Shown: piece after piece, positions 2,619 to 55,823 of the stretch
Layout of the letters: every line of letters starts with the position of its first letter
Numbering within the stretch: the stretch's first letter is position 1
Assembly: GCA_964515755.1 (NCBI GenBank)
Contig: CAZEVK010000003.1
Span: 13,881-77,880, forward strand
Origin: an uncultured Rickettsia sp.
Lineage (GTDB): Bacteria; Pseudomonadota; Alphaproteobacteria; Rickettsiales; JABSSG01
Reading direction: 5' to 3'
Length of the DNA: 64,000 nt
Translations under genes and position numbers: made by a program
The notes under the pieces: model-generated
What the model was told of the DNA's origin: nothing
What the model saw: only the letters and a program-made list of their open reading frames with translations
Database searches by the model: none

Positions 2619-2632
2619 AATTTGGTAAAAAA

Positions 2633-6597: not shown

Positions 6598-6600
6598 TTA

Positions 6601-7728: not shown

Positions 7729-7754
7729 ATATCTATTTCTAGATATAGATTTAA

Positions 7755-8357
7755 TTAAAGCTTTTCTGCATGTGTGTTAAGGTAATCTGCAACGCCCTCA
7801 GCACTTGGCTTCATACCATCTTGACCTTTTTGCCATCCAGCAGGGCATACTTCACCATGCTTTTCGAAGAAAATCAAAGCATCAACCATGCGAAGGGTAT
7901 CATCAATGTTACGTCCTAGAGGTAAATCGTTTACTAGCTGGTGGCGCACTATGCTGTTTCCATCTATTAAAAAGGTTCCTCGTAATGCAATTGCTTCTTC
8001 AACCAACACATCATAACTACGTGCGATACTCTTCGTTAAATCTGAAACTAATGGAAATTTAATTTGTCCAATACCACCTTTATTAATATGAGTATTTTTC
8101 CATGCAATATGACTAAAATGAGAATCTATGCTTATGCCAATTACTTTTGCTCCACGTGAAGCAAACTCTGTCAAGCGATTATTAAATGCGATAATTTCTG
8201 AAGGACAGACAAAAGTGAAGTCTAATGGGTAAAAAAACAATACTCCAATATTTCCATTTAGATATTGATGTAAAGAGAATTTATCCATAACCTCGTTATC
8301 TGGCATTACGGCTTTAGCAGTGAAATCTGGTGCTATTTTTCCAACAAGAACTGTCAT
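7755..8357 (-). CDS. typical 2-Cys peroxiredoxin (AhpC/Tsa family)
   Basis: 200 aa. Peroxidatic Cys motif FYPLDFTFVCPSEI and resolving Cys motif GEVCPAGW. Confidence 0.9.
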   Translation of the reverse strand: MTVLVGKIAPDFTAKAVMPDNEVMDKFSLHQYLNGNIGVLFFYPLDFTFVCPSEIIAFNNRLTEFASRGAKVIGISIDSHFSHIAWKNTHINKGGIGQIKFPLVSDLTKSIARSYDVLVEEAIALRGTFLIDGNSIVRHQLVNDLPLGRNIDDTLRMVDALIFFEKHGEVCPAGWQKGQDGMKPSAEGVADYLNTHAEKL

Positions 8358-11754: not shown

Positions 11755-11908
11755 ACTCTGTGTTTTATTCTTATATTATCTTGAATTATATTTATAATTG
11801 TTTTTCAACAGGTTACACTTAGATATTCAAAATTTATACTCCTATTTGATAGTCTAAAATTAGAATTTGGATGGAACCATTCTTATTAGCATAATTTTAG
11901 ATAATTTG

Positions 11909-13619: not shown

Positions 13620-14651
13620 TTAGCTTGAGATGAAGCTATATTTAAAACCATTCTCAATGATTACATTCATTTCTTCAAAGTTAACAATTTCATTATCAAG
13701 TAATATAGCTATTTCTTCTTTTATAGTAGTTTGTAATAATTCTGGTCCATCAGTATTTATTGTAAATTTTACTTCATTTTCAAGAAATGTTCTAATAATT
13801 TTATTTAATTCTTTTATATCTTTGACTATACCAAGTTTTAAATTTGAGGTAGGGCATATTTCTAAGCATATATCCAGATCTCTTAGCTTTTTCATTAATT
13901 TTTTATCTAAATGTGCTTTTATACCATGACCTATTCTGTTTAGAGGGAGAGCTTCAATTACTTTTTTCATTTCTTCAACAGATCCTTCTTCTCCAGTATG
14001 GATAGTAGTTTTTAGACCTTTTTTAGTAGCTTCTTGGTATAAATCACAGTAACTTGCATAATCAAAATCTCCAATTCTTGGTCCTGCTATATCAATAGCA
14101 ACAACTCCGCGGTTTTTATATTTAATTGCTTTCTCAAGTATAATAGTATTCTCTTTCTTAGAAAGTCTTCGATCAAGATTTAGAATTAAGCCTACCTTTA
14201 CCTCAGGGAAAGCGATCATGCTTCTATCTAATGCATGAATTGTTGCAATAATGATTTGATCAAGATCATGCTCACCTTTATTATTTCTCCACATAGGACA
14301 AAATCTTAATTCCAAACAGGTAATATTATTTTTTCGGTAGGCACCACTAACAGCATCATAAACTACTTTATTCATTGCATATGGGCTTGATTGAATTTTT
14401 TCTGTAAGATCAAAAAATTTGAGATATTTATTGAGTCTAGTTTTTGCATCTTCGCCTTTAATTTTATCTACTATTACCAGCATTTTTTGAAAGTCCCAGT
14501 AATTTTTTACTGGCATTTTTAAACCACATTCATGTGCAATATCCCAGAGAAGCGCAGGATGAGTAATGCTCCCTATATGTACATGTAAGTCTGATAATTT
14601 AGGATTTAAAGCAAAAAATTCTTGGCTTTCTTTATTCATAATTTTTTTCAC
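13620..14651 (-). CDS. add: adenosine/AMP-deaminase-fold amidohydrolase (add-like)
   Basis: 343 aa. Metal-ligand motifs LHVHIGS, TIHTGEE, RIGHG, CPTSN and NTDGP (canonical NTDDP). Overlaps the guaB 3' end by 20 nt. Confidence 0.8.
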   Translation of the reverse strand: MKKIMNKESQEFFALNPKLSDLHVHIGSITHPALLWDIAHECGLKMPVKNYWDFQKMLVIVDKIKGEDAKTRLNKYLKFFDLTEKIQSSPYAMNKVVYDAVSGAYRKNNITCLELRFCPMWRNNKGEHDLDQIIIATIHALDRSMIAFPEVKVGLILNLDRRLSKKENTIILEKAIKYKNRGVVAIDIAGPRIGDFDYASYCDLYQEATKKGLKTTIHTGEEGSVEEMKKVIEALPLNRIGHGIKAHLDKKLMKKLRDLDICLEICPTSNLKLGIVKDIKELNKIIRTFLENEVKFTINTDGPELLQTTIKEEIAILLDNEIVNFEEMNVIIENGFKYSFISS

Positions 14652-15696
14652 TCTTATAAGAAACTAGACTATGTGGATGACTTTCTCTAAGGCTTGCTGA
14701 TGTAACTTTTATAAATTGAGATTTAGTGTATACTTCACTTATGTTTACGGCACCAATTAATCCCATTGCAGCTTTTAAGCCACTCACGAGTTGATTTATT
14801 TGTGAATTTAATGAACCCCTATAAGAAACTAACCCAGATACGCCCATTGATGTTTTTTCGCTAACATTTTTTTGTCCATATCTATCGGCAGTGATATCTA
14901 AATTTAATACATCACTTGAACCCATACCTCGATATTTTTTAAATTTTTTACCCTCTATTTCGATGATTTCTCCTGGAGATTCATCAAGTCCAGAAAGTAA
15001 ATTTCCTAGCATTACACAATCCGCACCGGCTGCAATAGCTTTAGCAATATCGCCAGAGTTTTTAATTCCACCGTCAGAAATGACAGGTATTTTTTTTGCT
15101 TTAGTTACTTGCACAACTTGCTGTACGGCAGATAGCTGTGGTACACCAACTCCGGTCATCACTCTCATAGTACAAATAGATCCTGGACCAATGCCCACTC
15201 GTAAGCCATCAGCAAAGTCTGAATAAATTTCAGCTGCTTCTTTAGTACCAATACTGCCACAAATTAGATCTGCTGATATCATATTTTTAATTTTTGCGGC
15301 GCTATCAATAATATCTGTTTTCATACCATGTGATACATCAATTAAAATTATGTCTACTCCTTCTCCATCTAACGCTTTGATTCTTTCATAATCAAATGGC
15401 CCTACTGCTGCTCCAACTTTTAGATTTAATGCTTTTACATTCTTGATGGTTTCAACTTGCTGAGCAGCGGTCATGTTGCGATGTATAATTCCAATTCCGC
15501 CTATTTTAGCCAAACTTATAGCCATTTTTAAATCTGTGACTGTGTCCATTGGTGATGAAACAATTGGTAAGTCTATTTCAACATTTTTAGATATTTTAGT
15601 TTTAACATTACCGTCTAATGGACCTAAGGATGATAGTCCTGGTAGTAAAATCACATCATTGAAAGTTAGAAATTCCTCTAATTTATTATTTAGCAT
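14632..15696 (-). CDS. guaB: IMP dehydrogenase lacking the CBS/Bateman subdomain
   Basis: 354 aa. LTFNDVILLP, PIVSSPMDTVT, GGIGIIHRNM, catalytic loop GIGPGSICTMRVMTGVGVPQLSAV, ESHPH tail. The sequence goes from ..VETIKNVK directly to LKVGAAVG, where E. coli GuaB has ~120 aa of CBS pairs. Confidence 0.85.
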   Translation of the reverse strand: MLNNKLEEFLTFNDVILLPGLSSLGPLDGNVKTKISKNVEIDLPIVSSPMDTVTDLKMAISLAKIGGIGIIHRNMTAAQQVETIKNVKALNLKVGAAVGPFDYERIKALDGEGVDIILIDVSHGMKTDIIDSAAKIKNMISADLICGSIGTKEAAEIYSDFADGLRVGIGPGSICTMRVMTGVGVPQLSAVQQVVQVTKAKKIPVISDGGIKNSGDIAKAIAAGADCVMLGNLLSGLDESPGEIIEIEGKKFKKYRGMGSSDVLNLDITADRYGQKNVSEKTSMGVSGLVSYRGSLNSQINQLVSGLKAAMGLIGAVNISEVYTKSQFIKVTSASLRESHPHSLVSYKSEKNYE

Positions 15697-15699
15697 ATA

Positions 15700-17235
15700 T
15701 TATTCCCATCTTATAGTTGCAGGTGGTTTTGTTGTTATATCATATACCACTCTATTCACACCTTTTACCTCGCTTGTTATTCGATTAGACATTTTTGCTA
15801 ATAATTCATACGGTAATTGCGACCAACTGCTTGTCATAAGATCAGAAGGATCAACAGATCTAATAGCTAAAAGCCATTCATAAGCTCTTGCATCTCCTTT
15901 TATTCCAGTAGTTCTAATTCCCGTAAAGTTTGTAAATATTTCTCCAATTTTATCATATAATCCAGCTTTTTTTATCTCATCAATTACTATTGCGTCAGCA
16001 TGACGTGTTATTTCTACATTTTCTTCTGTTATCTCGCCAATTATCTGAATTGCTAAGCCCGGTCCGGGAAAAGGATGACGATTATATATATCTTCATTAA
16101 GCCCTAAAGTTTTAGAAATTTTTCTAACCTCATCTTTAAATAATTCATCTAATGGTTCATAAATTTTAAATGTCATTTTATCAGGTAGTCCACCAACATT
16201 ATGATGGCTTTTAATATTGCTTGAATGTTTAGAAGTTTTGCTGCTTTCTATTTTATCCGAATAAATAGTTCCTTGAATTAGATAGTCAACGTTTTGGATT
16301 TTTTGTGCTTCTTCTTCGAAAATGTTTATATATTCATGCCCAATTATTTTACGTTTTATTTCTGGGTCTACTACATTTTTTAATTTTGCAAAAAATCTTT
16401 CCTTCGCATCAATAATATGAAGACTCAAATTATATGGTAATAAATTTTTTTTTACTTCATCTACTTCATTAAGTCTCATTAAGCCTGTATCAACAAAAAT
16501 GCAATGTAAGTTACTTCCAATCGCTTTAGCACAAAGAACAGCCGCAGTTGTGGAGTCAATGCCACCGGATACAGCGCAAATTGCTTTTTTATCACCAATA
16601 ACTTGTTTGACGTGTAATATTTTTTGACTTAACCAATTATCTAAATTCCAGTTTTTATTAGCGTTGCAAATATTAAAAACAAAATTACTGAGAATTTCTT
16701 GACCATACTCAGAATGTTCTACTTCTGGATGGAATTGTACTCCATATATATTTTTCTTTTGATTTTCAATGGCTGCATATGAACATAACTTTGTAGAAGC
16801 AATGACTTTTGTATATTTGTCACTTAAGGTTTTTATTTCACTGCCGTGATTCATCCAAGAAATCACTTTGTTTGGTATATTAGAAAAGAGCTTACTCTTT
16901 AAAATAGAAACTTCTATTGACCCATACTCTTTGGTTAACATTTCTCCTACCGACCCACCTAGGTAATCGGCTATAAGATACATACCAAAACAAATGCCAA
17001 GAATTGGTAAATTGAGATCAAAGATTTTACGATCTATATCTGGGTAGTTTTGATCAGTAACAGACATAGGACTACCAGAAAGAATTATTCCGATAGGGTT
17101 TTGTTTAATGATTTGTTCTGCTGAAATGTTTGATTCTACGACTTCTGCACAAACACTAAACCCTCTTATTCTTCTTGCTATAAGGTTTGTAGTTTGAGAA
17201 CCTAAATCAATGATTATAATTTTATGTAGTTCCAT
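15700..17235 (-). CDS. guaA: GMP synthase (glutamine-hydrolysing)
   Basis: 511 aa. GATase-1 domain (GICFGMY, VQFHPE), PP-loop SGGIDSTT, and a C-terminal dimerisation domain ending PPATIRWE. Confidence 0.95.
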   Translation of the reverse strand: MELHKIIIIDLGSQTTNLIARRIRGFSVCAEVVESNISAEQIIKQNPIGIILSGSPMSVTDQNYPDIDRKIFDLNLPILGICFGMYLIADYLGGSVGEMLTKEYGSIEVSILKSKLFSNIPNKVISWMNHGSEIKTLSDKYTKVIASTKLCSYAAIENQKKNIYGVQFHPEVEHSEYGQEILSNFVFNICNANKNWNLDNWLSQKILHVKQVIGDKKAICAVSGGIDSTTAAVLCAKAIGSNLHCIFVDTGLMRLNEVDEVKKNLLPYNLSLHIIDAKERFFAKLKNVVDPEIKRKIIGHEYINIFEEEAQKIQNVDYLIQGTIYSDKIESSKTSKHSSNIKSHHNVGGLPDKMTFKIYEPLDELFKDEVRKISKTLGLNEDIYNRHPFPGPGLAIQIIGEITEENVEITRHADAIVIDEIKKAGLYDKIGEIFTNFTGIRTTGIKGDARAYEWLLAIRSVDPSDLMTSSWSQLPYELLAKMSNRITSEVKGVNRVVYDITTKPPATIRWE

Positions 17236-40267: not shown

Positions 40268-40600
40268 GTGTATACTGTTTTGTTTAATGTAATTTTGCTG
40301 TTCTTTGTATTATTTCCGTTGAAGGCAGTTGCTGATGCAGAATATATTGATTTACGAATAGTTGACCATAAATTCTTACCGGATACTATTAACGTTCCCG
40401 CAGATAAAGTCATCAAAATTAGAGTAGAGAATTTTGACCCAACTGTTGAAGAGTTTGAAAGCTTTGATCTAAAGCGTGAAAAAATTGTTCCTGCAAAAGG
40501 TAAGGTTATTATTATAGTTGGTCCACTTTCACCAGGTGAATATAGTTTTTTTGGTGAATTTCATCAAGAGACAGCACAAGGTAAGCTAATAGTTAAGTAA
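40268..40600 (+). CDS. periplasmic cupredoxin-fold protein associated with FTR1 (FtrB/EfeO-Cup-like)
   Basis: 110 aa, GTG start, signal peptide (..PLKAVA/DAEY). Cupredoxin-like C-terminal strand pattern PGEYSFFGEFHQETAQGKLIVK. 1 nt upstream of the permease. Confidence 0.65.
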   Translation: MYTVLFNVILLFFVLFPLKAVADAEYIDLRIVDHKFLPDTINVPADKVIKIRVENFDPTVEEFESFDLKREKIVPAKGKVIIIVGPLSPGEYSFFGEFHQETAQGKLIVK

Positions 40601-40601
40601 T

Positions 40602-41402
40602 ATGCTGCAGATTTTTATTATAGTTTTTAGAGAGATATTAGAAATTGCAATTATTCTTAGTATTGTTTTAGCTGCTACTAAGAATTTAAAAAATCGTACT
40701 ATTTGGATAGTTAATGGTATTAGTTTAGGTGTATTTGGTTCTATATTAATAGCTTTATTTACTTCTGCTATTTCTAATGCATTTGATGGTCAAGGACAGG
40801 AATATTTCAATGCTGCGATTGTTTCTATAACATGTGCTTTACTTGTTTGGACTGTAGTTTGGATGAAGAAGCAAGGTCAATTAATATCAAAAAAAATAAA
40901 AGATGTAAGTAATGAGATACATGCAGGAAGGTCTTCTTTTATTTCTTTAATGCTAATTATAGCATCTACAATTTTTAGAGAAGGTTCTGAAATAGTTTTG
41001 TTTACTTATGGTTCTTATGCCTCTCATAAACTATCTATAGCTTCTATATTTAGTGGTTGTGCTGCTGGTTTTACTTTAGGTGCTATTACTGGATATGCTG
41101 TTTATCATGGGGTTATTCGTTTTGCTGGAAAATATATTTTCCAATTAACTTTTTTATTAGTCAGTTTAATTGCTGCTGGTATGGCGGCTCAAGCAATTAA
41201 TTTTTTAAATGCTAGCGGTTTAATTACAGTATTTTCATATCCTATATGGAATAGTACAGCATTTTTATCAGATGGAAGTTTAGTAGGGCAAGTCCTTAAT
41301 GTTTTAATCGGTTATAATGCTCAACCTACATTATTACAATTTGTAGCTTATGTTGGTACTTTAATATTAATATGGGTATTGACTAAGTTTCAGAAGCCTT
41401 AG
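40602..41402 (+). CDS. FTR1-family high-affinity iron permease
   Basis: 266 aa, 7 TM. Both REXXE motifs present (FREILEI, FREGSEI). Confidence 0.85.
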   Translation: MLQIFIIVFREILEIAIILSIVLAATKNLKNRTIWIVNGISLGVFGSILIALFTSAISNAFDGQGQEYFNAAIVSITCALLVWTVVWMKKQGQLISKKIKDVSNEIHAGRSSFISLMLIIASTIFREGSEIVLFTYGSYASHKLSIASIFSGCAAGFTLGAITGYAVYHGVIRFAGKYIFQLTFLLVSLIAAGMAAQAINFLNASGLITVFSYPIWNSTAFLSDGSLVGQVLNVLIGYNAQPTLLQFVAYVGTLILIWVLTKFQKP

Positions 41403-42525
41403 CAGTTTTCGTTTCTTTTTCTTTCTTTTGATTTAATAATTCAAGAAATTGCTTACCAATTTTGCTGCCATTATTTGCTGCTAGTGTATACCACCTTAGA
41501 GCTTCTTGTTTATTTACTTCTACACCTCTACCATGTTCGTACATAAATCCTATGCTAGCTTGTGCAGAGCTTTCTCCACCATTTGCTGCTAGCGTATACC
41601 ACTTTAGAGCTTCTTTATAATCAGCTTTATTGCTGCTATCATACATAGTTCCTAAATTATACATTCCTGTAGGATTACCAGCTTCTGCAGCGAGCTTGTA
41701 CCATTTTAAAGCTTCTTGTAAATCAACGTTTGTACCTATGCCATTTTCATAAAGAGCAGCAAGATTATTTTGAGCATCAGGATTTCCTTGTTCAGCAGCA
41801 AGCTTAAACCAATATAAAGCTTTTTTCTCATTCATTTCGACAAGATTACCAGTTGCGTATTTTTCTCCTAAGATCATTTGTGCATTGCTATAGCCATTTT
41901 CAGCAGCAAATTTATAGCATTCGAGAGCATATTGTGGGTCTTTTTCAAGACCTATGCCATTTTCAAACATTAATCCTAAGTTATATCCAGCTTCGGTGTT
42001 TCCTTGCTTTGCAGCAGTATAAAAATATTTATATGCTTCTGCTACATCTAGTACTACACCTCTGCCATTAAGATACATATATCCTAAACGAACAAGAGAG
42101 TTGGTGTTACCTTGTTTTGCTGATAATCTATACATTGATATTGCTTCCGTTAGGTTTTGAGGAACAACTAAACCAAGTTCGTATATATAACCTAAATTAT
42201 ATTGTGCAGCAGCTTCTCCAGACTTAGCACTTTGCTTTAAAAATTCTATTCCATTTCCTATATTTTGTTGGATGTGAGTGCCTGTGACTAAGAATGTTCC
42301 TAGTTTAAACTGAGCTTTTGAGTTACCTTTATCAGCAGCCATTTTATAGTTATTTATTGCTTCATTTTCATTTTGCTCTACCCCTAAACCGTTCTCATAC
42401 ATTGTCCCAAGGATATATAACATTTCTTGATTTCCTGCTTTTGCTTCTTGCAAAACATACGGTAATGAGTTAGCTAAGTCTTTGTTTTCGTAATTTTTTT
42501 TAGCTTGTTCGTAAGATATTTCCAT
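41383..42525 (-). CDS. Sel1-repeat (SLR/TPR-like) protein, nine repeats
   Basis: 380 aa. Nine ~36-aa units of the type GNxxAQxxLGxMYxxGxGVxxxxxEAxxWYxxAAxx. No N-terminal signal peptide. Lys/Glu-rich tail. Confidence 0.9.
   Translation of the reverse strand: MEISYEQAKKNYENKDLANSLPYVLQEAKAGNQEMLYILGTMYENGLGVEQNENEAINNYKMAADKGNSKAQFKLGTFLVTGTHIQQNIGNGIEFLKQSAKSGEAAAQYNLGYIYELGLVVPQNLTEAISMYRLSAKQGNTNSLVRLGYMYLNGRGVVLDVAEAYKYFYTAAKQGNTEAGYNLGLMFENGIGLEKDPQYALECYKFAAENGYSNAQMILGEKYATGNLVEMNEKKALYWFKLAAEQGNPDAQNNLAALYENGIGTNVDLQEALKWYKLAAEAGNPTGMYNLGTMYDSSNKADYKEALKWYTLAANGGESSAQASIGFMYEHGRGVEVNKQEALRWYTLAANNGSKIGKQFLELLNQKKEKETKTAKASET
41473..41615. repeat. 108-bp-period intragenic DNA repeat in the Sel1 gene
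   Basis: atttgctgctagtgtataccaccttagagcttctt (41473-41507) recurs at 41581-41615 with 2 mismatches in 35 nt, exactly 108 nt (36 codons) apart. A weaker third copy lies near 41689. Confidence 0.65.
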
Positions 42526-45135: not shown

Positions 45136-47149
45136 ATTTATGAAGGCTCCTTGATTTTATTTTTTTCATTACTTGTTGTACCACATTATCTGCATTAATG
45201 CCAAAATAATCAAATAGTTCTGACGCTGGTGCTGAAGTACCAAAGTTTTTCATTCCTATAAATATTCCATGCTGACCTATGTATTTATGCCAGCCAAAAG
45301 ATACTGCTGCCTCAATTGCAACCTTAATACTATCATTGCATAAAATTTCAGTTATATACTCAGAAGGTTGTTTGTCAAATAATTCCATACATGGCATTGA
45401 GATGACTCTTGTGCCAATGTTTTTTTGCTCTAAACTTTTTTGTGCATCAATAGCGATAGAAACCTCTGAACCAGTGGCAAATATTGTAACATCTAAATCT
45501 AAGCTGGATTCTGAGATTATATAAGCGCCTTTGCTTACGAAATTTTCTTCATTATGTAAAGTACGATGAAGAACATGTATATTTTGTCTTGTAAGAGCAA
45601 GTATAGATGGGATATTTATTGATCTAATTGCTACTTCCCAACACTCTATAGTTTCAATACTGTCAGCAGGTCTCATTACTTGTAAGTTAGGAATTGCCCT
45701 AAGCGCTGCTAAATGCTCTATAGGTTGATGTGTTGGTCCATCTTCACCTAATCCTATAGAATCATGGGTAAGTACATAGATTACTCTTAATCCCATTAAT
45801 GCCGATAGTCTTATTGCTGGACGTGCATAGTCGCTAAAGACTAGGAATGTACCACCGTAAGGGATTATGCCTCCATAGATTGCAAGACCGTTCATTATTG
45901 CAGCCATAGCATGTTCACGTATTCCGTAGTAAATATAGCTACCGCTGAAATCGCCTTTAGTTATAGCTGGAGTTGAAGCTGTTTTTGTTAGATTTGATTC
46001 GGTTAGATCTGCTGATCCGCCGATTAATTCAGGAATTTCTTTTGTAAGGAATTCTAATGCAGTGAATGAAGCTTTTCTAGTTGCTTCGTTCATTAGATGA
46101 TTAGAAGTCTTTTTCTTAGCCTGGTTTATGGCGTATGCAAGTAGAGCTGGTATATATTGCTTATTAGTCAAATTTTTAAGGATCATTTTTTTATTTTCTG
46201 ACAAGGTACATGCAGTTTCAATCCATCTGTTATAAGTAGTATTAGATCTTTTGCCAATATCTCGCCACATTTCTAATAATTTATTGGGTATATAAAATGG
46301 TTCAATTTTATCCCATCCATAAGATTCTTTTATTATCTGAATTTCATCCGTACCTAAAGGACTACCGTGAGCTTTTGCAGATCCTGATTTTGTTGGAGCC
46401 CCATAAGCAATAATAGTTTTGCAAGCAATCATTGATGGGATTTTGCTAGCCTTTGCATTTTTCAATGCTTGACTAATTTGCAAATAATTGTGTCCATCAA
46501 TTTCTTGGACATACCATCCAGCTGCTTTAAATCTCATTGTCTGATTTTCTGAGTCTGTAAGATTTTTATCGCCATCAATTGTGATGCTGTTATCATCAAA
46601 TAATACTATTAATTTATTTAGCCTAAAATTCCCTGCAAATGAAATTGCTTCATGAGAAATTCCTTCCATTAAACAACCATCACCAGCAATTACATAAGTA
46701 TGATGATTTATAATTTTATCACCTAATTTACTTTCTTGTATTTTTTCTGCAAGCGCTATACCAACAGCATTTGCTAAGCCTTGTCCTAATGGCCCAGTAG
46801 AAGTTTCAACCCCTTCAGTATGTCTATATTCTGGATGACCAGGTGTTTTGCTATGTAATTGTCTAAATAACTTTATATCATTTAAACCCATTTCTTTATA
46901 CCCAGTTAAATATAATATGGAATAAAGAAGCATTGATCCATGGCCTGCGGAAAGAATTAGGCGATCACGATTTGGCCATTCTGGTTGTATAGGATTAAAG
47001 TTTAAATATTCTGCAAATAATACTGTTGCTACGTCTGCCATGCCCATTGGCATACCAGGATGACCAGACTTTGCATGTTCAACTGCGTCCATTGATAAAA
47101 CTCTAATACAATTAGCTAGATCTCTATAATGTGTAGAAATTTTATTCAT
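45116..47149 (-). CDS. tkt: transketolase
   Basis: SGHPGMPMGMADV, GDGCLMEGISHEA and THDSIGLGEDGPTHQP. ATG 47149 (MNKISTHYRDLANCIR..) preferred over the 35-codon upstream extension. 3' end overlaps gap by 20 nt. Confidence 0.93.
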   Translation of the reverse strand: MNKISTHYRDLANCIRVLSMDAVEHAKSGHPGMPMGMADVATVLFAEYLNFNPIQPEWPNRDRLILSAGHGSMLLYSILYLTGYKEMGLNDIKLFRQLHSKTPGHPEYRHTEGVETSTGPLGQGLANAVGIALAEKIQESKLGDKIINHHTYVIAGDGCLMEGISHEAISFAGNFRLNKLIVLFDDNSITIDGDKNLTDSENQTMRFKAAGWYVQEIDGHNYLQISQALKNAKASKIPSMIACKTIIAYGAPTKSGSAKAHGSPLGTDEIQIIKESYGWDKIEPFYIPNKLLEMWRDIGKRSNTTYNRWIETACTLSENKKMILKNLTNKQYIPALLAYAINQAKKKTSNHLMNEATRKASFTALEFLTKEIPELIGGSADLTESNLTKTASTPAITKGDFSGSYIYYGIREHAMAAIMNGLAIYGGIIPYGGTFLVFSDYARPAIRLSALMGLRVIYVLTHDSIGLGEDGPTHQPIEHLAALRAIPNLQVMRPADSIETIECWEVAIRSINIPSILALTRQNIHVLHRTLHNEENFVSKGAYIISESSLDLDVTIFATGSEVSIAIDAQKSLEQKNIGTRVISMPCMELFDKQPSEYITEILCNDSIKVAIEAAVSFGWHKYIGQHGIFIGMKNFGTSAPASELFDYFGINADNVVQQVMKKIKSRSLHKYGKSSN

Positions 47150-47256
47150 AATTAATTGCGTCAATGTGTTTATTAAAGTACAGTAGCATACAATATCTAT
47201 CCAATAATTACAATTAGTTTGGTCTGGCTTATACCATCTAAGGACAGGGATCAATT

Positions 47257-48036
47257 ATGCAAAAACTAATATCACTTTTAAGAATTATATATTTCTCGTT
47301 TTTTTCTAAAGCTTTTTATAAAGATGTTTACCATAATTTGCATGGTCGGCAAATAGGGTGTTTAATACGTATAGTTGCTCTTGTGTCGATTATTATTTCT
47401 GCTGTTGAAAGTTATAAAATGTGGGCATTTTTGAATAATTTGGCTGTTGATCAAGTTATTAATCATTTACCTTTAATGAGTGTTAAGGATAATAAATTAC
47501 AAGTTATTAGTAAAACAGATGATAAACCAATTTTTATACGTAATGATGATGGTAAAATTTTGATTATCATTGATGATCAAGCAAAAGATAATAAATATCA
47601 GTCTGAAAAGGCAATGATTGTAGTTGTAAATAATGGCGTGTTCCTGAATGATTTTTATAAATTTAAATTTAGTTCACTTTTTCATGACCAAGATATAAAT
47701 CTAACTCATGATTTTATAGAGCAATATTGGAAAAAATTACTTGAGATGATGAAGTTTACTTTAGCCTTTTTTATCTTCGGTCTTATTTTTATTGAATTGA
47801 CAATTCAAGCTGTTCTATATTCTGTATTTTTTAGTATGACGGTTTTGTTATTGCATAAGATTATAAAAAAACAAGAAATAAAATTTGATTCTTTATTTCG
47901 TTTAGGTGTATTTGCTAGCTTGCCTGCAATGGTTTCTTCATTCTTTTTGCCAGCGAATTTGGTTGATTTTATAGCATTTTGTTACTTTATTTTTGCTTAT
48001 TACAATGTGATTTATAAAAGTCCATCAAGAATTTAA
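47257..48036 (+). CDS. DUF1189-like polytopic membrane protein
   Basis: 259 aa. TM helix, a soluble middle, then three C-terminal TM helices. The N-terminal F..FYKDV pattern recalls DUF1189. Tentative. Confidence 0.45.
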   Translation: MQKLISLLRIIYFSFFSKAFYKDVYHNLHGRQIGCLIRIVALVSIIISAVESYKMWAFLNNLAVDQVINHLPLMSVKDNKLQVISKTDDKPIFIRNDDGKILIIIDDQAKDNKYQSEKAMIVVVNNGVFLNDFYKFKFSSLFHDQDINLTHDFIEQYWKKLLEMMKFTLAFFIFGLIFIELTIQAVLYSVFFSMTVLLLHKIIKKQEIKFDSLFRLGVFASLPAMVSSFFLPANLVDFIAFCYFIFAYYNVIYKSPSRI

Positions 48037-49569
48037 TTGCTTTGAATATTCCTTACTAAGTAGTTTTACATCAACAATCCAAATTAATACTACAACAACA
48101 AAAATAGTCATTAATAATGTAGAAATTGTTAGATAGGTGGCTGTTGGTAATATGATAAATAGCATTGATTGTAATAAGGCAGCTCCTGATTTAGCAAATC
48201 TAGCACCTATTACATCCACAGCTGCTTTACCTTTAGATTTTAATTCATTATCTATTGGAATATAAGTCATTTCTTTTGTTGGGTCAAATAATGCATATTT
48301 AGTTGATTTACTTAATACATTTTGTGCTGTACCAAGAAACACTGCTATTAATAATGGGTCGAATATCATGAATGTTCCAAAATATGTAGTTGCAACCTTA
48401 TCAAATACTATGAAAATGAAAAATGCTATGCCAGTAATAAAAAAAGTTACTGGTGTTATTATAGCTGAAGTAAACCAGCTATATTTTTTAAGAATGCTAG
48501 CACCAACAAGTATAAATAGCATAGAAACACCGCCAGTCCATTGATTAACGCCAGCCATAAAATAAATATAGTCATCAGTTGATGGATAAAGCTTTCTTAC
48601 AGTAGCTTTCCATGGTCCTTCTAGCAAATTTACAGAGATTCCATAGCATAAAACTAATATAGCAATATATCCTAAATAACGCGATGACATGATGATCTTT
48701 AGACTTTCTAGTAAAGGCATTTTTTTATCTAGATTTTTGCTTTTGATTTGTTTTAAATATTTGAGATCAGTTATTACATTGCGATTTACATATTCAAATA
48801 ATAAAATTATGCATAGAGTTGATATAATTAAAGTCAACATCATCAATTGTACTAAAAAAATAGTATTTTCACTATATTGTGATTGTAGTATTGTACAAAG
48901 TTTTATTATTCCCCCAGCCGTAAATGTACCAAAGCTTCCAATAAACGCAAACATAGGATAAAATCTTTTTGCTTCTTTTGTTTGGATTACTTGATTAGCA
49001 AATTGCCAGAATAATAAACCATTCATTACGGTCCATAATTCCGCAATCATATAAAAGAAAGCATATAGCCATTTATTATATACTAAGAAAAACCATTTAA
49101 AATGTGATAAATTTATTTTACAAAAGCCCAAATCTAAGTTTTGTTTAATTAAGTCATTTATATATAGAGATTGCGGGTGAATTGCTACTTCATTAGGATA
49201 TAAAACAAATCCAAATAATAGGAAGAATAAAATAAAAAATCCTGCTATATAAAAATATATTTTTCTAAAGTTCCAAATATTAGTCATTTTGGCATAAATT
49301 AACACAAAAATGATTGCTGCTGGTACTACACAAAAAAACTTAATAAAGCTAATTGCTTCTGCTCCTATATTTGGAACAACAAGACTGTCCTTAAAGGAGC
49401 GAAGGGCATTGTAGTTATATAGAGTAAAGAAAAGCATCAGAGACATGGGCAGGAATTTTTTTAGCTCGTTTTTCTCAATTGGCCAAATAAATTCTTTCAG
49501 TGCGCCCATTATTATAAATATCATTATTAATAGGTATGTATGTCTAAAGGAAACTTTATTCTTGGTCAA
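48025..49569 (-). CDS. tlc: nucleotide transporter, Tlc/NTT (ATP:ADP antiporter) family, paralog 1
   Basis: ~500 aa, 12 TM. FIWPIEKNELKKFLPM, RSFKDSLVV, LFWQFANQ, EAKRFYPMF and KGKAAVDVIGARFAKSG match Rickettsia Tlc1 by eye. Start uncertain (TTG 49569, ATG 49524 or ATG 49509). Confidence 0.9.
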   Translation of the reverse strand: MTKNKVSFRHTYLLIMIFIIMGALKEFIWPIEKNELKKFLPMSLMLFFTLYNYNALRSFKDSLVVPNIGAEAISFIKFFCVVPAAIIFVLIYAKMTNIWNFRKIYFYIAGFFILFFLLFGFVLYPNEVAIHPQSLYINDLIKQNLDLGFCKINLSHFKWFFLVYNKWLYAFFYMIAELWTVMNGLLFWQFANQVIQTKEAKRFYPMFAFIGSFGTFTAGGIIKLCTILQSQYSENTIFLVQLMMLTLIISTLCIILLFEYVNRNVITDLKYLKQIKSKNLDKKMPLLESLKIIMSSRYLGYIAILVLCYGISVNLLEGPWKATVRKLYPSTDDYIYFMAGVNQWTGGVSMLFILVGASILKKYSWFTSAIITPVTFFITGIAFFIFIVFDKVATTYFGTFMIFDPLLIAVFLGTAQNVLSKSTKYALFDPTKEMTYIPIDNELKSKGKAAVDVIGARFAKSGAALLQSMLFIILPTATYLTISTLLMTIFVVVVLIWIVDVKLLSKEYSKQLNS

Positions 49570-49601
49570 GAACTAATTTCTCTCAGATTTAAAGAATAAA
49601 T

Positions 49602-51113
49602 TTAGATTGTTTTATTTTTTGAAAATAAAAGCTTTTTATAAGCCTTATTTAGGGCGCTTACATCAAAAAGCCATATAATTACGATTATTGTGAATATTAC
49701 CATTAGATATGGGGATATAGTAGTGAAAGTTGCTGCTGGAAAAATCATAAATATTAGGCTTTGAATAAAAGCACCACCAGATTTTGCAAGTCTTGCACCT
49801 ACTACATCTACAGCTGCTTTACCTTTAGATCTTATTTCTTCATCTGCTGGTATATATGCCATTTCTTTTGTAGAATCGAAGAATGAATATTTAGCTGATT
49901 TACTGAGAATATTTTGAGCAGCTCCAAGCATAACTGCCATTAATAATGGATCAAATATTAAAAATTGATTTATAAAGTTGGCTGTTGAGCTATCAAAAAC
50001 TATAAAAATGAAAAAGCCTAATCCAGTTACCATTATCATAATGGGAGTTATAATAGCTGCTGGAAGCCATCCATAAACTCTAAGTATATTTACACTTATA
50101 ATAGTGAATAATATTGTAAAAGCTCCGTTCAACTGGATAACATGACCCATGAAGTAAGTATAATCTCTGGTATTAGGATATAGTTCACTTATTTTAGCTC
50201 TCCAAGGCCCTTCAACTAAATTTATTGAAATACCATACGCAAAAATTAGTACAACTATAAAACCAAGATATTTTGAGGAAAAGATATACTTCAGTCCTTC
50301 AATAAGAGGTAATTTAGGTCTGATATTTTCAGATTGCTTAGCTTTTCCAGCATAGTAAGATTTAGTAATAACACAGTTATTAATATATTTGAAAGTAAGT
50401 GTAGAGCATACTAAAGCAAAGCTTGCAAGAAGCATGAATACTACTATTAGCCCATTGTTTCCATCTCCAAAAAATTCTGTATGGCCATGGGAATAATATT
50501 TTATCAATCCTCCTGATATAACTGGTCCTATATGGCCAATTAAAGCAAACATAGGATAAAATCTTTTTGATTCTTCTGTGCTCGTAGTTTGGTTAGCAAA
50601 TTGCCAAAATAGTAAAAAGATCATTGCTGATCCCCAAAGTTCTGCAACTATATAAAATAGTGCAAAAGGCCATTTTCCAAAAATTAGCACAAACCATTTA
50701 AAATGTTTCATGTGAATAGTAAATATTCCTAAGTCTACAGAAGAATGAATTAAGTTTGTTATTGTAGCAGGATTGGGATTTACTAAATCTAGGTTTGGAT
50801 ATAAAAAGAAAGCGAAAATTAAAAAAAACGATAGAAAAAAGAATGATATAAAATAAAATATTCTCTGAAAAGATAGTATACTGGTAAGTTTAGCATAGAT
50901 TATAGCGAATAAGATTGCAGAAGGTACAACAAAATATAATTTTATAAAGCTAATAGATTCAGCTCCAATATTAGGAACTACAAGGCTGTCTTTAAATGAT
51001 CTTAAAACATTATAATTAAAAAGAATAAAAAAAAGCATTAATGCCATCGGAATAAATTTTCCTAATTCCTTTTTCTTAATTGGCCAAAAGATTTCCCTTA
51101 ATTTTAATAACAC
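49602..51113 (-). CDS. tlc: nucleotide transporter, Tlc/NTT family, paralog 2
   Basis: 503 aa, GTG start 1 nt after the pntB stop. Same family motifs (IFWPIKKKELGKFIPM, LFWQFANQ, SKRFYPMF, KGKAAVDVVGARLAKSG). Clearly diverged from paralog 1. Confidence 0.9.
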   Translation of the reverse strand: MLLKLREIFWPIKKKELGKFIPMALMLFFILFNYNVLRSFKDSLVVPNIGAESISFIKLYFVVPSAILFAIIYAKLTSILSFQRIFYFISFFFLSFFLIFAFFLYPNLDLVNPNPATITNLIHSSVDLGIFTIHMKHFKWFVLIFGKWPFALFYIVAELWGSAMIFLLFWQFANQTTSTEESKRFYPMFALIGHIGPVISGGLIKYYSHGHTEFFGDGNNGLIVVFMLLASFALVCSTLTFKYINNCVITKSYYAGKAKQSENIRPKLPLIEGLKYIFSSKYLGFIVVLIFAYGISINLVEGPWRAKISELYPNTRDYTYFMGHVIQLNGAFTILFTIISVNILRVYGWLPAAIITPIMIMVTGLGFFIFIVFDSSTANFINQFLIFDPLLMAVMLGAAQNILSKSAKYSFFDSTKEMAYIPADEEIRSKGKAAVDVVGARLAKSGGAFIQSLIFMIFPAATFTTISPYLMVIFTIIVIIWLFDVSALNKAYKKLLFSKNKTI

Positions 51114-51114
51114 T

Positions 51115-52512
51115 TTATAGTTTTTCTAACTCCTTTACTATATTTTCAGTCATTTTTTTAGCATCTCCAAATAACATAAATGTATTATCTCTAAAAAACA
51201 ATGCATTTTCGACACCAGCATAACCTGCGGCCATGCCTCTTTTAACAAATAATACAGTTTTAGCATGTTCAACATCTAAGATTGGCATACCAAAAATTGG
51301 ACTTGATTTATCTGTTTTAGCTGCTGGATTGGTTACGTCGTTTGCACCAATAACGAAGGCTATATCTGTAGTGCCAAATTCTCTATTTATATCTTCTAAT
51401 TCAAATACTTTACTATAATCAATTCCTGCTTCAGCAAGTAATACGTTCATATGACCTGGCATGCGTCCAGCTACAGGGTGAATAGCATAACGAACTTTAA
51501 CGCCGTGATTCTCTAATAATATTTCCATATCTTTAACTGCATGTTGTGCATGCGCTACTGCCATACCATAACCTGGAACTATAATAACAGAGGAAGCGTT
51601 GTTTAAAAGAAATGCAGCATCTTCAGGGTTGCTTTGTTTTGCAATTTTACCATCTGTACTTTCTTGTTCGGCTTTTGCGTCTTCAGTCTTGAAAGTACCA
51701 AAAATTATATTAAAAATTGATCTGTTCATAGCTTTACACATAACGTAACTAAGTATAGCGCCACTTGCACCTACTAAAGCACCAGTTATTATAAGTAGGC
51801 TATTTGTTAGCGTAAAGCCTATGCCAGCTGCAGCCCAACCAGAATAAGAGTTAAGCATGGAAATTACTACAGGCATGTCAGCTCCACCAATAGGTATTAT
51901 TAACAGTACACCTAGCAAGGCGGAAAGAAGTATGATGAGAACAAACGCAAGACATGATTCTGATGTGCAGAATATAATAGCTAATGCAACTATTATTAGT
52001 GTTACAGTTATATTAATTGATTTATGCATTTTTAATTTAATTGGTCTTCCAGACATTAATTCGTGTAATTTAGCAAAAGCTATTATTGAACCAGTAAAAG
52101 TTATGGCGCCTATTGATGCTCCAAGCACCATTTCAATTAGGTTTGATAATTTTAAGTGACCACTTAAACCAAGCCCATAGCTTTGAGGATCAGTTAAAGC
52201 GCTCAGCGCTATAAGAGTTGCAGCTAATCCTACTAATGAGTGAAATCCAGCAACTAGTTGTGGCATTTCAGTCATTTTTACTTTTTTAGCAATAAATCCT
52301 CCAATAATACCGCCGATAGCAATTCCAAAAATAATAATTAATTTGCTGCTAGTCGTTGGATTTATAATGGTTGCTAGAATTGCAAGAGCCATCGCAATAA
52401 TTCCATAAAAATTACCTAATCTTGCTGTTTGTGGTGATGATAAGCCCTTTAAAGACAGTATAAAAAGTACTGCTGAAATTAAATAGATAAAAGAAATAAG
52501 GTTAGCTGTCAT
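51115..52512 (-). CDS. pntB: NAD(P) transhydrogenase subunit beta
   Basis: 465 aa. Polytopic N-half and an NADP(H)-binding dIII C-half ([22 protein letters not shown]). Confidence 0.95.
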
Positions 52513-52513
52513 A

Positions 52514-52909
52514 TTATTTTTTCTTAAACATTTCTAACATTCTATTGGTTACAATAAATCCACCAAAAATATTTATTGAGGCAATAATTACTGCAATTAA
52601 TCCTAGAAACTGACTAAATCCGAAACCTTCAGGCCCCACGGCGATCATTGCGCCAATAATAATAATACCAGATATTGCGTTAGTTACTGACATTAGAGGA
52701 GTATGAAGTGCTGGAGTTACCTTCCATACTACATAATATCCTATAAAACAGGATAGAATGAAAATTGTTAAGGCAAAAATAAAAGGATCTATCTCTGAAT
52801 TTCCAACATTCGATTGAGTTGCTATTAGTTGATTAATTTTTTCTGATAGTTTGTAAGCTTCATCTGAGACGAGTTGTGCTTGTTTAACTATGTTAGTATC
52901 ACTGCTCAT
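52514..52909 (-). CDS. pntAB: NAD(P) transhydrogenase subunit alpha part 2 (membrane)
   Basis: 131 aa, with the C-terminal 3-4 TM segment typical of the split alpha subunit. Sits between pntAA and pntB. Confidence 0.88.
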
Positions 52910-52914
52910 AATGT

Positions 52915-54063
52915 TTATTTTAAAGTAGTCTTATTAACTGTTTTACTACCATATGTAATAATACATGAGTTTATAATTTCGTCATCAAAATTTAAATTTA
53001 TTTTTTTATTTTCTTTATCATAAAGCAAAGTAACGAAGTTTAGTAAGTTACGTGCATAAAGTTTGCTTGCATCTGAAGGAATACGAGATGGATAATTAGT
53101 GTACCCTATAATTTTTACACCATTATGTTCTGTGATATCATTAGGCACCGTAAGTGCACAATTACCACCATTTACAGCTGCTATATCTACTATAATTGAG
53201 CCTGGATTCATGCTTTTTACCATTTCAGCAGTAATAAGTTTTGGCGCTTCTTTACCTGGAATAAGAGCAGTAGTGATTATTATATTTTGTTTTTTAATGG
53301 TTTCTGCGATTAAATCAGCTTGTTTTTTCTTATATTCAGCACTTACTTCTTGGGCATATCCACTTTTATTTTCCAGAGTTTGTTGTGATTCTGTTTTTAC
53401 TTCAATAAATGTTGCCCCTAGGCTTTCTACTTGTTCTTTTGCTGCAGTACGAATGTCAAATGCGGACACTATTGCTCCTAAGCGTTTTGCTGTAGCTATA
53501 GCTTGTAGCCCAGCAACTCCTGCTCCTATTACTAATATTCTAGCAGGCGATGCTGTTCCTGCCGCAGTCATCATCATAGGAAAAACTTTATCATATTCGT
53601 ATGCAGCATCAATTACAGCACGATATCCTGAAAGATTACTTTGCGAAGATAGCACATCCATAGATTGTGCGCGAGTTATTCTTGGCAACAGCTCTAAAGA
53701 AAATGAAGTGATATTTTTTTTGTTATATTCTTCAAAAAGTTCCTTATTATTATAGGGTGATAACATCCCTATAACTAATGCACCTTTTTTTAAAAATGCG
53801 GTTTCATCTTCTTTTGCGCTCTTTGTTTTTGGAGAATACTGAACTTTTAAAACTATATCAGCATCTTTCACTGTATCTACAATATCTTTTGTAATTTTAG
53901 CGCCAGCTTCTTTGTAATGCTGATCATTTATACCAGCTAAGATTCCGGCATTAGTTTCAATAAATACATCAAAACCTAGAGATATCAAAGACTTTACAGT
54001 ATCTATTGATACCGCTACTCTTTTTTCATGATTCATCCTTTCCTTTAAGACGGCAATCTTCAT
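52915..54063 (-). CDS. pntAA: NAD(P) transhydrogenase subunit alpha part 1 (dI, NAD(H)-binding)
   Basis: 382 aa. Alanine dehydrogenase/PNT fold, Rossmann motif [20 protein letters not shown]. Confidence 0.93.
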
Positions 54064-54205
54064 TTCTGATAATTTAACTACATTAGAATTTCAATGATTG
54101 CACGATAATATACTTTGCGTAATCTTTTTTGCAAGCAAATATTTGTATATGCAGAAATCTATTGCCATTTATAAAATTCTTGCTAATAGTAGTAGAGTGA
54201 TCTGA

Positions 54206-54282
<77 letters not shown>

Positions 54283-54283
54283 T

Positions 54284-55060
54284 TTATTTAGTTCCCCATA
54301 ATGTTATAATTTCGAAATTAACAATTATTTTATTATTTTTACCATATTGTTTTTTATATAAGAGTTCTGCGAGCTCAAGAGTTTTATTTGACAATATTGA
54401 TGGGTTAACAAGGCAATTTGATTGTGCCATTCCTCTTAAGTCCAGAAATAACTTTATAAGGTTAGGGTATGAAACTGTTACAGTTGTACTATCCGTAATC
54501 GGGTTTAAGAATTTTGTTCTTTGTAATAGCGAGGAAGCATCTATTGCATCAATCATTGGGGATATATGTGATGATATTCTATGGCCTAGTTTTTCTTCTG
54601 CTTCAATCAATACTTTACGTAACTCTATTAAGCTTTTTCCACCAATAATTGACGCTGTGAAAACAGCTTTTGGCTTAAGAATTCTATTTATTTGTAGCAT
54701 TGTACCAGGCAAATCATTTACCCAATGTAAATTTAAATTACTGATGATCAAATCAAAACTATTATCAGCAAAAGGTAAGAATTCTTCATCTACTTGTACT
54801 CTTTGACCATCAGTTTTTTGCAACATTTTGTATGAAATATCAGTTTGTACTAATTGCTTAATTTTAAGATTTGATTTTATTTTTGAAAACCTACCATCAT
54901 AGCAGCCAAGATCTAAAGCAGTTTCGTAATTTTGACTATGATCATTTATTCTTTCAACTAAATCCTCAAGTGTGTGAGATAGTAAAAAATTATGTTGATT
55001 GAGTTTTTTTGAAGCTCTATCTCGATGTAGTTTATGCGCAAATCTATTAAATATTATCAT
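54284..55060 (-). CDS. class I SAM-dependent methyltransferase (Methyltransf_11, BioC/NDUFAF5-like)
   Basis: SAM motif I (ALDLGCYDG) and motif post-I/II (DLIISNLNLHWVNDL). N-terminus FNRFAHKLHRDRA resembles NDUFAF5-type proteins. ATG 55060 preferred; longest ORF starts at 55093. Confidence 0.75.
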   Translation of the reverse strand: MIIFNRFAHKLHRDRASKKLNQHNFLLSHTLEDLVERINDHSQNYETALDLGCYDGRFSKIKSNLKIKQLVQTDISYKMLQKTDGQRVQVDEEFLPFADNSFDLIISNLNLHWVNDLPGTMLQINRILKPKAVFTASIIGGKSLIELRKVLIEAEEKLGHRISSHISPMIDAIDASSLLQRTKFLNPITDSTTVTVSYPNLIKLFLDLRGMAQSNCLVNPSILSNKTLELAELLYKKQYGKNNKIIVNFEIITLWGTK

Positions 55061-55061
55061 T

Positions 55062-55823
55062 TTATTTTCTGGTAAAAACATATTGGCTTTCATTTGAAAG
55101 TGACTGGTTAAATTTATATTTACTTTCTACAAATGACTTTAATAATTCTGGTTTTGTGATTTTATTTTTAATAATAAAGTTAGCCATCAATCCTCTAGCC
55201 TTTTTTGAAAATAAACCAATAATTTTATAATTATCATTTTTCTCTTCTTTAAATATAATATCAATTTTTTCTAAAGTTAATTTACTATGATTTATTGAAT
55301 CAAAGTACTCAGCTGAAGCAAGATTAATTAAGTACTTGTTATCGTTTGCCAGGCTATTGAGTTCGCTAGTGATTTTATCGCCCCAGAATTGATATAAATT
55401 ATTATAATTTGCTATCTTTAATTTTATACCCATTTCTAAACGATAAGGCTGAATAAGGTCTAAAGGTCTAATTAAACCATACAATCCCGATAAAATACGT
55501 AAATGTTTTTGAGCAAAATCAAAATCATTATTATCATAATGTTCTAAGTTGATACCTTCATATACATCACCTTTAAAACTAAGAATAGCTGGTTTAGAAT
55601 TATCTTTAGTAAATTTAGTTTCGAATTGTTGATAACGATCAAAATTTAGTTTTGCTAAGTTATCACTGATTTTCATTAAAGTTCTTAATTCTTGTATTGA
55701 TATTTTTTTTAATGAGTTAATAAGTTCTATGATTTCGTTATGAAACTTTGATTTACTACATATAAAATTATACTTTGCTAGGCTAAAATCTTGTGTTTTT
55801 GACGGAGATATTACTACAATCAT
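55062..55823 (-). CDS. yaaA: peroxide stress protein YaaA (DUF328/UPF0246)
   Basis: 253 aa. MIVVISPSKTQDF N-terminus, and the GDVYEG and RILSGLYGLIRPLD motifs. Confidence 0.85.
   Translation of the reverse strand: MIVVISPSKTQDFSLAKYNFICSKSKFHNEIIELINSLKKISIQELRTLMKISDNLAKLNFDRYQQFETKFTKDNSKPAILSFKGDVYEGINLEHYDNNDFDFAQKHLRILSGLYGLIRPLDLIQPYRLEMGIKLKIANYNNLYQFWGDKITSELNSLANDNKYLINLASAEYFDSINHSKLTLEKIDIIFKEEKNDNYKIIGLFSKKARGLMANFIIKNKITKPELLKSFVESKYKFNQSLSNESQYVFTRK

Follow-up and report, generated by a model that had tools for sequence, protein, structure and literature searches.

The window analysed here is a stretch of 64,000 nucleotides from an uncultured Rickettsia sp. (contig CAZEVK010000003.1), with a G+C content of about 30%. 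On its minus strand lie five genes in a row: pntAA, pntAB and pntB for a proton-translocating NAD(P) transhydrogenase, followed by two genes for nucleotide transporters (NTTs), called NTT1 and NTT2. This order had been proposed in an initial annotation of the window, and all five open reading frames (ORFs) were found where it had placed them. The mechanical ORFs are separated by 5, 1, 1 and 32 nt. The first three gaps (pntAA/pntAB, pntAB/pntB and pntB/NTT1) were borne out by the ORF coordinates, while the last one had to be revised. The coordinates of all features are collected in Table 1.

Table 1. Features of the transhydrogenase-transporter locus, in window coordinates.
Feature	Position	Strand	Basis or remark
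Convergent gene, 259 aa, downstream edge of the unit	47257..48036	+	ORF list; DUF1189 is a precomputed Pfam label on relatives
NTT2 (orthogroup b), the second of the nucleotide transporters; 494 aa with the corrected ATG	48025..49509	-	Pfam TLC, E 4e-160
NTT1-NTT2 spacer, 92 nt, with putative internal promoter P2	49510..49601	-	Conserved TTGACY
NTT1, orthogroup a, pnt-adjacent nucleotide transporter, 503 aa, GTG start	49602..51113	-	Pfam TLC, E 7e-166
pntB stop / NTT-a start junction, TAA-A-GTG	51111..51117	-	Sequence
pntB, beta subunit (membrane dII and NADP(H)-binding dIII), 465 aa	51115..52512	-	Pfam PNTB, E 3e-193
AAGGAG, possible Shine-Dalgarno, in the last codons of pntB (K-E of ...VKELEKL)	51130..51135	-	16 nt before the NTT1 GTG
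pntAB, transhydrogenase alpha-2 (4-TM membrane part), 131 aa	52514..52909	-	Pfam PNTB_4TM, E 1.6e-38
pntAA, transhydrogenase alpha-1 (NAD(H)-binding domain dI), 382 aa	52915..54063	-	Pfam AlaDh_PNT_N and AlaDh_PNT_C
P1, a promoter-like site (TTGCAA-16-TATATT) roughly 45 nt before the ATG of pntAA	54107..54134	-	Consensus scan and alignment; putative function
tRNA-Val(GAC), divergent from pntAA, upstream edge of the unit	54206..54282	+	ARAGORN; Rfam tRNA, 67.7 bits

The first three genes encode the dI domain, the four-transmembrane (4-TM) alpha-2 protein and the PntB beta subunit, in the order of a three-gene transhydrogenase. PntAA scored 445 bits against NCBIfam PRK09424 (cutoff 383) and covered profile positions 1-363. 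PntAB corresponds to positions 413-509 of the same full-length PntA model and its gene starts 5 nt past pntAA, while pntB starts 1 nt past pntAB and covers 455 of the 456 positions of the Pfam PNTB profile. The three-polypeptide transhydrogenases of Rhodospirillum rubrum and Rickettsia are built in the same way, with the alpha subunit split into soluble dI and a small 4-TM protein, followed by beta. In contrast to them, the operon in the window runs on unbroken into a transporter gene.

Both transporters are full-length members of the NTT/TLC family (PF03219, TIGR00769, TC 2.A.12). NTT1 and NTT2 scored 553 and 534 bits against Pfam TLC (cutoff 21), from profile position 9 or 10 to the last of 491, and 473 and 445 bits against NCBIfam TIGR00769, where both exceeded the cutoff of 387. 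They are 53% identical to each other over the full length. Whole-length homology was also found to the Chlamydia Npt1 structure (PDB 9j3n, 'ADP,ATP carrier protein 1'; E 4e-107 and 7e-107) and to the plastid NTT1 structure (PDB 9j3j; E 3e-94 and 9e-84), with about 38-41% identity over the full length. By sequence, NTT1 and NTT2 are canonical members of the Npt1/plastid-NTT subfamily.

The junction between pntB and NTT1 reads ...CTA TAA A GTG TTA TTA AAA TTA AGG GAA ATC TTT TGG. GTG 51113 had been proposed as the forced start of NTT1, and indeed no other start codon precedes the conserved LREIFWPIKKKE segment, since an in-frame TAG stands 5 codons upstream, followed by AAA AAC TAT AAA. A later start at an internal ATG (Met23) was rejected: the preceding 22 residues are conserved as protein across lineages, while their codons differ synonymously (Arg, for instance, is AGG in one place and CGA in another lineage). 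With the stop and the start 1 nt apart, the junction leaves no room for a promoter or a terminator, as the initial annotation had pointed out. RNA structure at the junction was not significant (z +0.67) and the consensus scan found no terminator-like site there.

The possible Shine-Dalgarno sequence AAGGAG at the end of pntB is an unusual spelling. The KE dicodon is written AAGGAG in 2 of 83 cases in the window genes, while at the pntB end it is AAGGAG in seven of ten sequenced lineages and AAGGAA in two. It could be the ribosome-binding site of a coupled NTT1 gene. We treat it as a hint of uncertain role, because its spacing ranges between 8 and 23 nt and the majority of genes here do without one.

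To follow the arrangement in relatives, genomic contexts were collected by an exact-protein look-up and a scan of GTDB species representatives. The closest genomes are metagenome-assembled genomes (MAGs) from lakes and other environments, named 'Rickettsiales bacterium', and the list of NTT homologs consists of Rickettsiales and Midichloria MAG proteins. The order pntAA-pntAB-pntB-NTT was found in eleven lineages: the window, L006, L002, L003/L007, L004/L008, L024, L009, L012, L028, L030 and the P0062 contig. The identity of their NTTs to that of the window falls from 93% (L006) through 81% (L002), 73% (L003/L007), 71% (L004/L008) and 58% (L024) to about 54% (L009, L012 and L028). Four more short contigs (4.7-15 kb), which have the same size in the NTT and the PntB match lists, appear to carry the adjacency too.

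The junction between pntB and the adjacent transporter gene, here called NTT-a, was compared in ten sequenced lineages. The gap is 1 nt in five of them, as TAA-A-GTG in the window, L006, L002 and L003 and as TAG-C-GTG in L004, and 5 nt in one (TAG, five nucleotides and ATG in L012). Stop and start overlap by 4 nt in the other four, as ATGA in L009 and as GTGA in L024, L028 and L030. For the eleventh lineage, the P0062 contig, gene calls only gave a gap of 17 nt and a single NTT-a after pnt. Misassembly or chance as the source of the arrangement was rejected, with at least ten independent assemblies (ENA, JGI, NCBI and Logan) sharing the junction. These conserved junctions, from -4 to +5 nt and with no terminator-like site or significant structure found, indicate that pntB and NTT-a are very probably translationally coupled.

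Synonymous divergence (dS) between the window and L002-L004 ranges from 1.0 to saturated. All five genes are under purifying selection: the ratio of nonsynonymous to synonymous divergence (dN/dS) between the window and relatives is 0.05-0.11, with 0.08-0.10 for pntAA and 0.05-0.11 for NTT1. The flanks of the block have changed at the same time. Upstream, depending on the lineage, we found AddA-HisPhos-YaaA-methyltransferase-tRNA-Val, a kinase or ATP synthase/rpsD, and downstream DUF1189-tkt-gap-pgk, Rce1-aspartokinase or plsY-tal. Since the junction persists despite near-saturated synonymous sites and exchanged flanks, and the genes have a low dN/dS, we conclude that the block is maintained and that its core would be the four-gene unit pntAA-pntAB-pntB-NTTa, predicted to be an operon that is conserved in an AT-rich clade of uncultured Rickettsiales. 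Beyond these lineages, none of the NTTs of a Midichloria genome, L025, L027 and more distant groups stands beside pnt.

The L029 lineage is the only broken coupling among the cases seen. In L029 (P0050 lineage), positions 2250-7780 hold an aminotransferase gene, dapF, dapB, an aspartokinase gene and lysA between pntB and an array of three NTT genes. Two database labels in this set deserve a comment. The lake MAGs L006/L011 (CAMCSP01) and L004/L008 (CAMDPW01) are titled 'Rickettsia typhi', which is evidently wrong, because their NTTs are just about 47% identical to those of a Rickettsiaceae MAG and they carry tkt-gap-pgk. NTT homologs with 36-39% identity also occur in MAGs labelled Puniceicoccales, Oscillospiraceae and Eubacteriales (L018-L023 and L017/L021), none of them with pnt nearby. 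This suggests that NTT-bearing, possibly host-associated members of these groups exist.

Next, we looked at the signals that could drive expression of the unit. The promoter and terminator scans did not return more sites than shuffled sequences, and expression signals were judged by conservation across lineages. In an alignment of five lineages with diverged flanks, the promoter-like site P1 shows two invariant blocks, CTTGC[AC]A and TATATT, with 16-17 nt between them, and more distant lineages have TTGAAA/TATAAA-like boxes at this position. The reverse complement of tRNA-Val is found upstream of pntAA also in L002, L003, L006, L009, L024 and L028, so that the pnt promoter region is a divergent tRNA/operon spacer conserved across the clade. 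The TATATT of P1 is bracketed by an inverted repeat, TTGCA...TGCAA (window ~54100-54135), which stands out best in L002 and L006, is imperfect in the window and could be an operator. An Rfam scan of positions 47000-55200 (E<=1) found no riboswitch, the matches being the tRNA and one sub-threshold match to an antisense family.

The second transporter gene is linked differently. The mechanical ORF of NTT2 starts at TTG 49569, while all its orthologs start at an ATG 6-8 codons ahead of the WPI motif (MGALKEF, MGVLKEF, MSKIKEF, MRRIKEF, MNSLLQF, MKAIAKF and MSSLTQF). The in-frame extension upstream of this ATG is not conserved and is just six codons long in L002; the gene calls of the relatives give 494 aa. 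The true start of NTT2 is therefore ATG 49509 (MGALKEF...). With this start, the gap between NTT1 and NTT2, given as 32 nt in the initial annotation, is really 92 nt, and there is room for a promoter.

A candidate promoter (P2) was found in this spacer. It consists of TTGACC at 49564-49569, which includes the very TTG taken as the start by the mechanical ORF, and, after 17 nt, TAGACA at 49541-49546. The NTT-a/NTT-b spacers of the different lineages are 59 to about 695 nt long and cannot be aligned with each other. In nine of twelve lineages a TTGACY is found 49-61 nt before the NTT-b ATG, against a background of 5e-4 per position, with a TA-rich hexamer exactly 17 nt past it. No terminator-like hairpin was found in the NTT1-NTT2 spacer of the window, and its RNA structure was not significant (z -1.67). 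These conserved elements suggest that NTT2 probably has its own promoter. Co-expression of the whole block, as first proposed, was thus strengthened for pntB and NTT1 by the tight junctions in ten lineages and weakened for NTT2, which lies behind a 92-nt spacer with a conserved TTGACY. In L009, the spacer of about 695 nt (11507-12201) holds an inserted ORF that separates the two NTT genes and would encode a hydrophobic protein of about 170 aa.

At its downstream edge the block meets the convergent DUF1189-type gene. The 3' end of this gene overlaps the stop of NTT2 by 12 nt (48025-48036), so that no space is left for a terminator between the converging genes. An overlap of exactly 12 nt was also seen in L002 (9839-9850), L003 (13123-13134) and L004 (13360-13371), whose convergent products are labelled PF06691. 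The 259-aa protein of the window itself gave no match in a Pfam scan at E 1e-3. Elsewhere in the window, a cupredoxin-like gene and a gene for an FTR1-type iron permease form a pair (40268-41402 and 41383-42525), followed by a convergent gene for a Sel1-repeat protein. The same pair adjoins the tkt-gap-pgk block in L002-L004.

To place the transporters, a neighbour-joining tree (100 bootstraps) was built from the NTTs of these loci, selected database matches and two PDB sequences, with Chlamydia Npt1 and plastid NTT1 as outgroups. The two PDB sequences, one protein annotated by its depositor as 'tlc1' and published tree descriptions served as stand-ins for authentic Tlc1-5 and PamNTT1-5. The NTTs fall into three orthogroups, a, b and c, with the gene order a-b-c. 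Group a (68% bootstrap) is always the pnt-adjacent copy and includes NTT1, and group b (100%) includes NTT2. Group c, which is weakly supported, is third in line in L009, L024, L028 and L030 and solitary in L025. The three groups together form one clade, whose sister is a Midichloria NTT; next come Rickettsiaceae proteins, among them the depositor-named tlc1, which is the nearest outgroup with a gene name.

An old duplication of the two genes had been proposed, and the tree agrees with it, as NTT1 and NTT2 belong to separate orthogroups shared across the whole clade. The duplication is clade-specific, since a, b and c all lie inside one clade. The three groups would have arisen there by tandem duplication of one canonical Tlc1/Npt1-type exchanger, a reading of the tree that we hold with the same moderate confidence as the whole model of which it is part. 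Independent expansions of NTTs in Rickettsiales have been published, and the a/b/c set matches that picture (PMC5381601, PMC10847448). The group c gene of L025 lies near folB-folK-folP-folC, the same genes that follow the NTT array in L024 and L028. The sublineage of the window has probably moved pnt-a-b away from c, and a third NTT paralog may lie outside the window.

The best-known counterparts are Tlc1-Tlc5 of Rickettsia prowazekii (TC 2.A.12), which belong to the same family (Pfam TLC/TIGR00769) and come from the same bacterial order. They too are a set of paralogs expanded within one lineage, among which the nucleotide substrate range is split (PMC5615194, PMC5381601, PMC10847448). The a/b/c expansion appears to be independent of theirs, as it lies inside one clade that is sister to the Midichloria and tlc1-like proteins. 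Moreover, the NTT genes of the window form a tandem whose first member adjoins pntB directly, an arrangement for which we found no report on the Rickettsia tlc genes.

We then compared the residues likely to matter for transport. ATP/ADP carriers have four charged transmembrane residues, which we take to be K155, E245, E385 and K527 of AtNTT1 (Trentmann et al. 2000). A single offset (84) maps these onto K/E/E/K of the 9j3j chain, which corroborates the numbering. Both NTT1 and NTT2 have K/E/E/K at the aligned sites, in FIK, AELW, LVE/LLE and AKSG. Near these sites the groups have changed. In the G-A-N motif that follows AKRFY..F, the Asn has been replaced by His (rarely Gln) in group a and by Ser in group b. 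All of group c has kept this Asn, as have the seven references and outgroups in the comparison (Npt1, AtNTT1, two Midichloria NTTs and three Rickettsiaceae NTTs); Gln takes its place in three more distant NTTs. In group b, the ELWGS motif next to the critical Glu is altered too. Compared with Chlamydia Npt1 and plastid NTT1, NTT1 thus has His and NTT2 has Ser at the G-A-N Asn, NTT2 is without the Gly of ELWGS, and the genomic context is different. Of the 113 outgroup-invariant columns, 74 are retained in group a, 74 in group b and 79 in group c. Identity to the outgroups is about 49% for group c, 46-47% for a and 44-45% for b.

Taken together, these data point to a conserved, translationally coupled unit that co-produces a transhydrogenase and an importer of host nucleotides, with substrates split among a, b and c. 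We consider this the most probable reading, though only somewhat more probable than all others combined. A single transcript from the sigma-70-like P1, just downstream of the divergent tRNA-Val, would cover pntAA-pntAB-pntB-NTTa. Because the pntB stop and the NTT-a start overlap or are 1 nt apart, ribosomes that terminate on pntB would be expected to restart on NTT-a, a gene that appears to have neither its own promoter nor a spacer. By this restart at the abutting or overlapping junction, PntB and NTT-a would be made together. NTT-b would be read both by read-through from P1 and from its own promoter P2. The NTTs would import host nucleotides, either adenylates or other nucleoside triphosphates, with the substrate range divided among the three groups. 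The link to pnt would then be a co-regulation of two inner-membrane functions, the uptake of host nucleotides or energy and the production of NADPH driven by the proton gradient, both of which a cell dependent on its host would require at the same time. The coupled-unit model includes no dedicated step of NAD+ import.

Several points weigh against this reading. The L029/L010 sublineage has separated the pnt block from the NTT array by 5.7 kb of dap/lys genes, so that the linkage is not obligatory. The consensus scan for promoters returned 42 sites, no better than chance when compared with 45.6 in shuffled sequences. The bootstrap of group a is just 68% and that of group c is weak. The operon copies a and b are the more derived ones and may have specificities that are not ancestral, shifted perhaps to other nucleoside triphosphates or to NAD(P), and substrates cannot be read from sequence.

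The main rival is that there is no functional link at all. An NTT gene could have landed behind pntB in the ancestor of the clade and stayed there as a frozen accident that borrows a constitutive promoter, the abutting or overlapping stop and start making the pair hard to split in a streamlined genome. This is plausible in a window where short spacers are found throughout and where abutting or overlapping genes are common (tkt/gap, gap/pgk and NTT2/DUF1189). It also agrees with the L029/L010 sublineage, which parted the two blocks and lost neither, and with the NTTs of Midichloria and other Rickettsiales relatives, which lie in unrelated contexts. However, the junction has persisted in eleven lineages through synonymous saturation and rearrangements on both sides. 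It has also changed in form, between gaps of 1 or 5 nt and a 4-nt overlap and between GTG and ATG, and has remained tight, which speaks for maintenance and not inertia, and the rare AAGGAG dicodon has been kept at the end of pntB. We regard the frozen accident as possible and clearly less likely than the coupled unit.

Another explanation, which would be in line with the earlier proposal that one paralog could be an NAD+ importer, is the supply of pyridine nucleotides. NTT-a or NTT-b could have evolved from an adenylate exchanger into an importer of NAD+/NADP+, for example an NAD+/ADP exchanger, and its co-production with the transhydrogenase would spread the imported cofactor between the NAD and NADP redox pools. 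The tight, conserved coupling to pnt is what such a role would lead one to expect. Rickettsia imports intact NAD+ by a carrier yet to be identified, with NAD kinase and transhydrogenase acting downstream (PMC5615194). A canonical NTT, Npt1 of C. trachomatis, is described as carrying NAD besides ATP/ADP (Fisher 2013, as cited in PMC5381601). In addition, groups a and b have changed at reference-invariant positions, while c, the copy uncoupled from pntB, looks ancestral.

The characterised NAD+/ADP exchanger of the family, NTT4 of Protochlamydia amoebophila, provides an intracellular bacterium with a pyridine nucleotide, the function that the initial annotation proposed for one of the window proteins. 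However, PamNTT4 is placed outside the canonical NTT subfamily (PMC5381601), and the rickettsial Tlc proteins resemble it little (PMC5615194). The literature places the Rickettsia Tlc proteins in the canonical subfamily too. The window NTTs nest within the canonical NTTs in our tree, and are set apart from PamNTT4 by its published description (PMC5381601).

The window also has little to say on NAD metabolism. Its genes include housekeeping genes, tkt-gap-pgk, rpe, icd and a purine interconversion cluster, and its source organism presumably has an intracellular lifestyle. No gene for NAD synthesis or salvage was found among the 47 of 58 window ORFs annotated by Pfam. This would favour import of NAD, but 64 kb is a small part of the genome and the absence is uninformative. 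The 11 ORFs outside the Pfam scan are tkt, gap, pgk, yaaA, a His_Phos-type gene and an AddA-like helicase gene, all six identified from the Pfam labels of relatives, and five of 83-115 aa. The purine cluster (13620-17235, minus strand) encodes an adenosine/adenine-deaminase-family protein, an IMPDH/GMP-reductase-type protein without the CBS insert and GMP synthase, in abutting or overlapping genes. With these enzymes the cell could make guanylates from adenylates that it takes up, a point in favour of the coupled-unit model and of relevance to the question which nucleotides have to be imported.

Against a role in pyridine-nucleotide supply stand the canonical placement of the NTTs, the retention of all four charged residues of ATP/ADP carriers and the lack of an NAD+ riboswitch or other RNA element at the locus in the Rfam scan. 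Moreover, Pnt requires no imported substrate, and what speaks for this role is genomic association. We found no positive evidence for the proposed NAD+ importer and consider a pyridine-nucleotide supply by NTT-a or NTT-b improbable. The narrower proposal that NTT-a is a Tlc1-derived NAD(P)+ carrier, belonging to the missing NAD+ import system of rickettsiae, is slightly less probable still. If it were true, NTT-a would be the first identified member of that long-missing system, and its fixed co-production with the transhydrogenase would couple cofactor uptake to the NADH/NADPH balance.

Finally, a physical partnership, in which NTT-a and PntB are co-inserted and form a membrane complex, is very improbable: stop/start overlaps are typical for subunits made in a fixed ratio, and the true partners pntAB and pntB are joined by the same 1-nt or overlap pattern, but no two-domain PntB-NTT fusion was found in the best 120 homologs of either PntB or the NTTs (those of PntB are all about 465 aa long, with a single domain), the L029 lineage has uncoupled pnt from NTT, and to our knowledge Pnt and NTTs function alone in every characterised system.

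The coupled pnt-NTT unit also has to be set against what has been published. The initial annotation had named no described operon of this kind, and we found none in the searchable literature, which offered general metabolic reconstructions only. The comparative study of tlc genes in Rickettsiales that comes closest to the subject does not use the word 'transhydrogenase'. Within the reach of a literature search, a pnt-NTT operon is thus apparently undescribed. The novelty lies in the arrangement; all its parts are ordinary proteins of well-known families.

The locus provides three clearly delimited groups of paralogs (a, b and c), marked by changes that are specific to the group and close to residues critical for function. 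By its context, group a is a candidate for the NAD+ carrier that Rickettsiales need and that has been unidentified since uptake was measured. The unit would be a clear case of selection tying a gene of energy or nucleotide parasitism to a redox-balancing enzyme in at least eleven environmental lineages of Rickettsiales, a linkage that bears on how host-dependent cells organise their economy.

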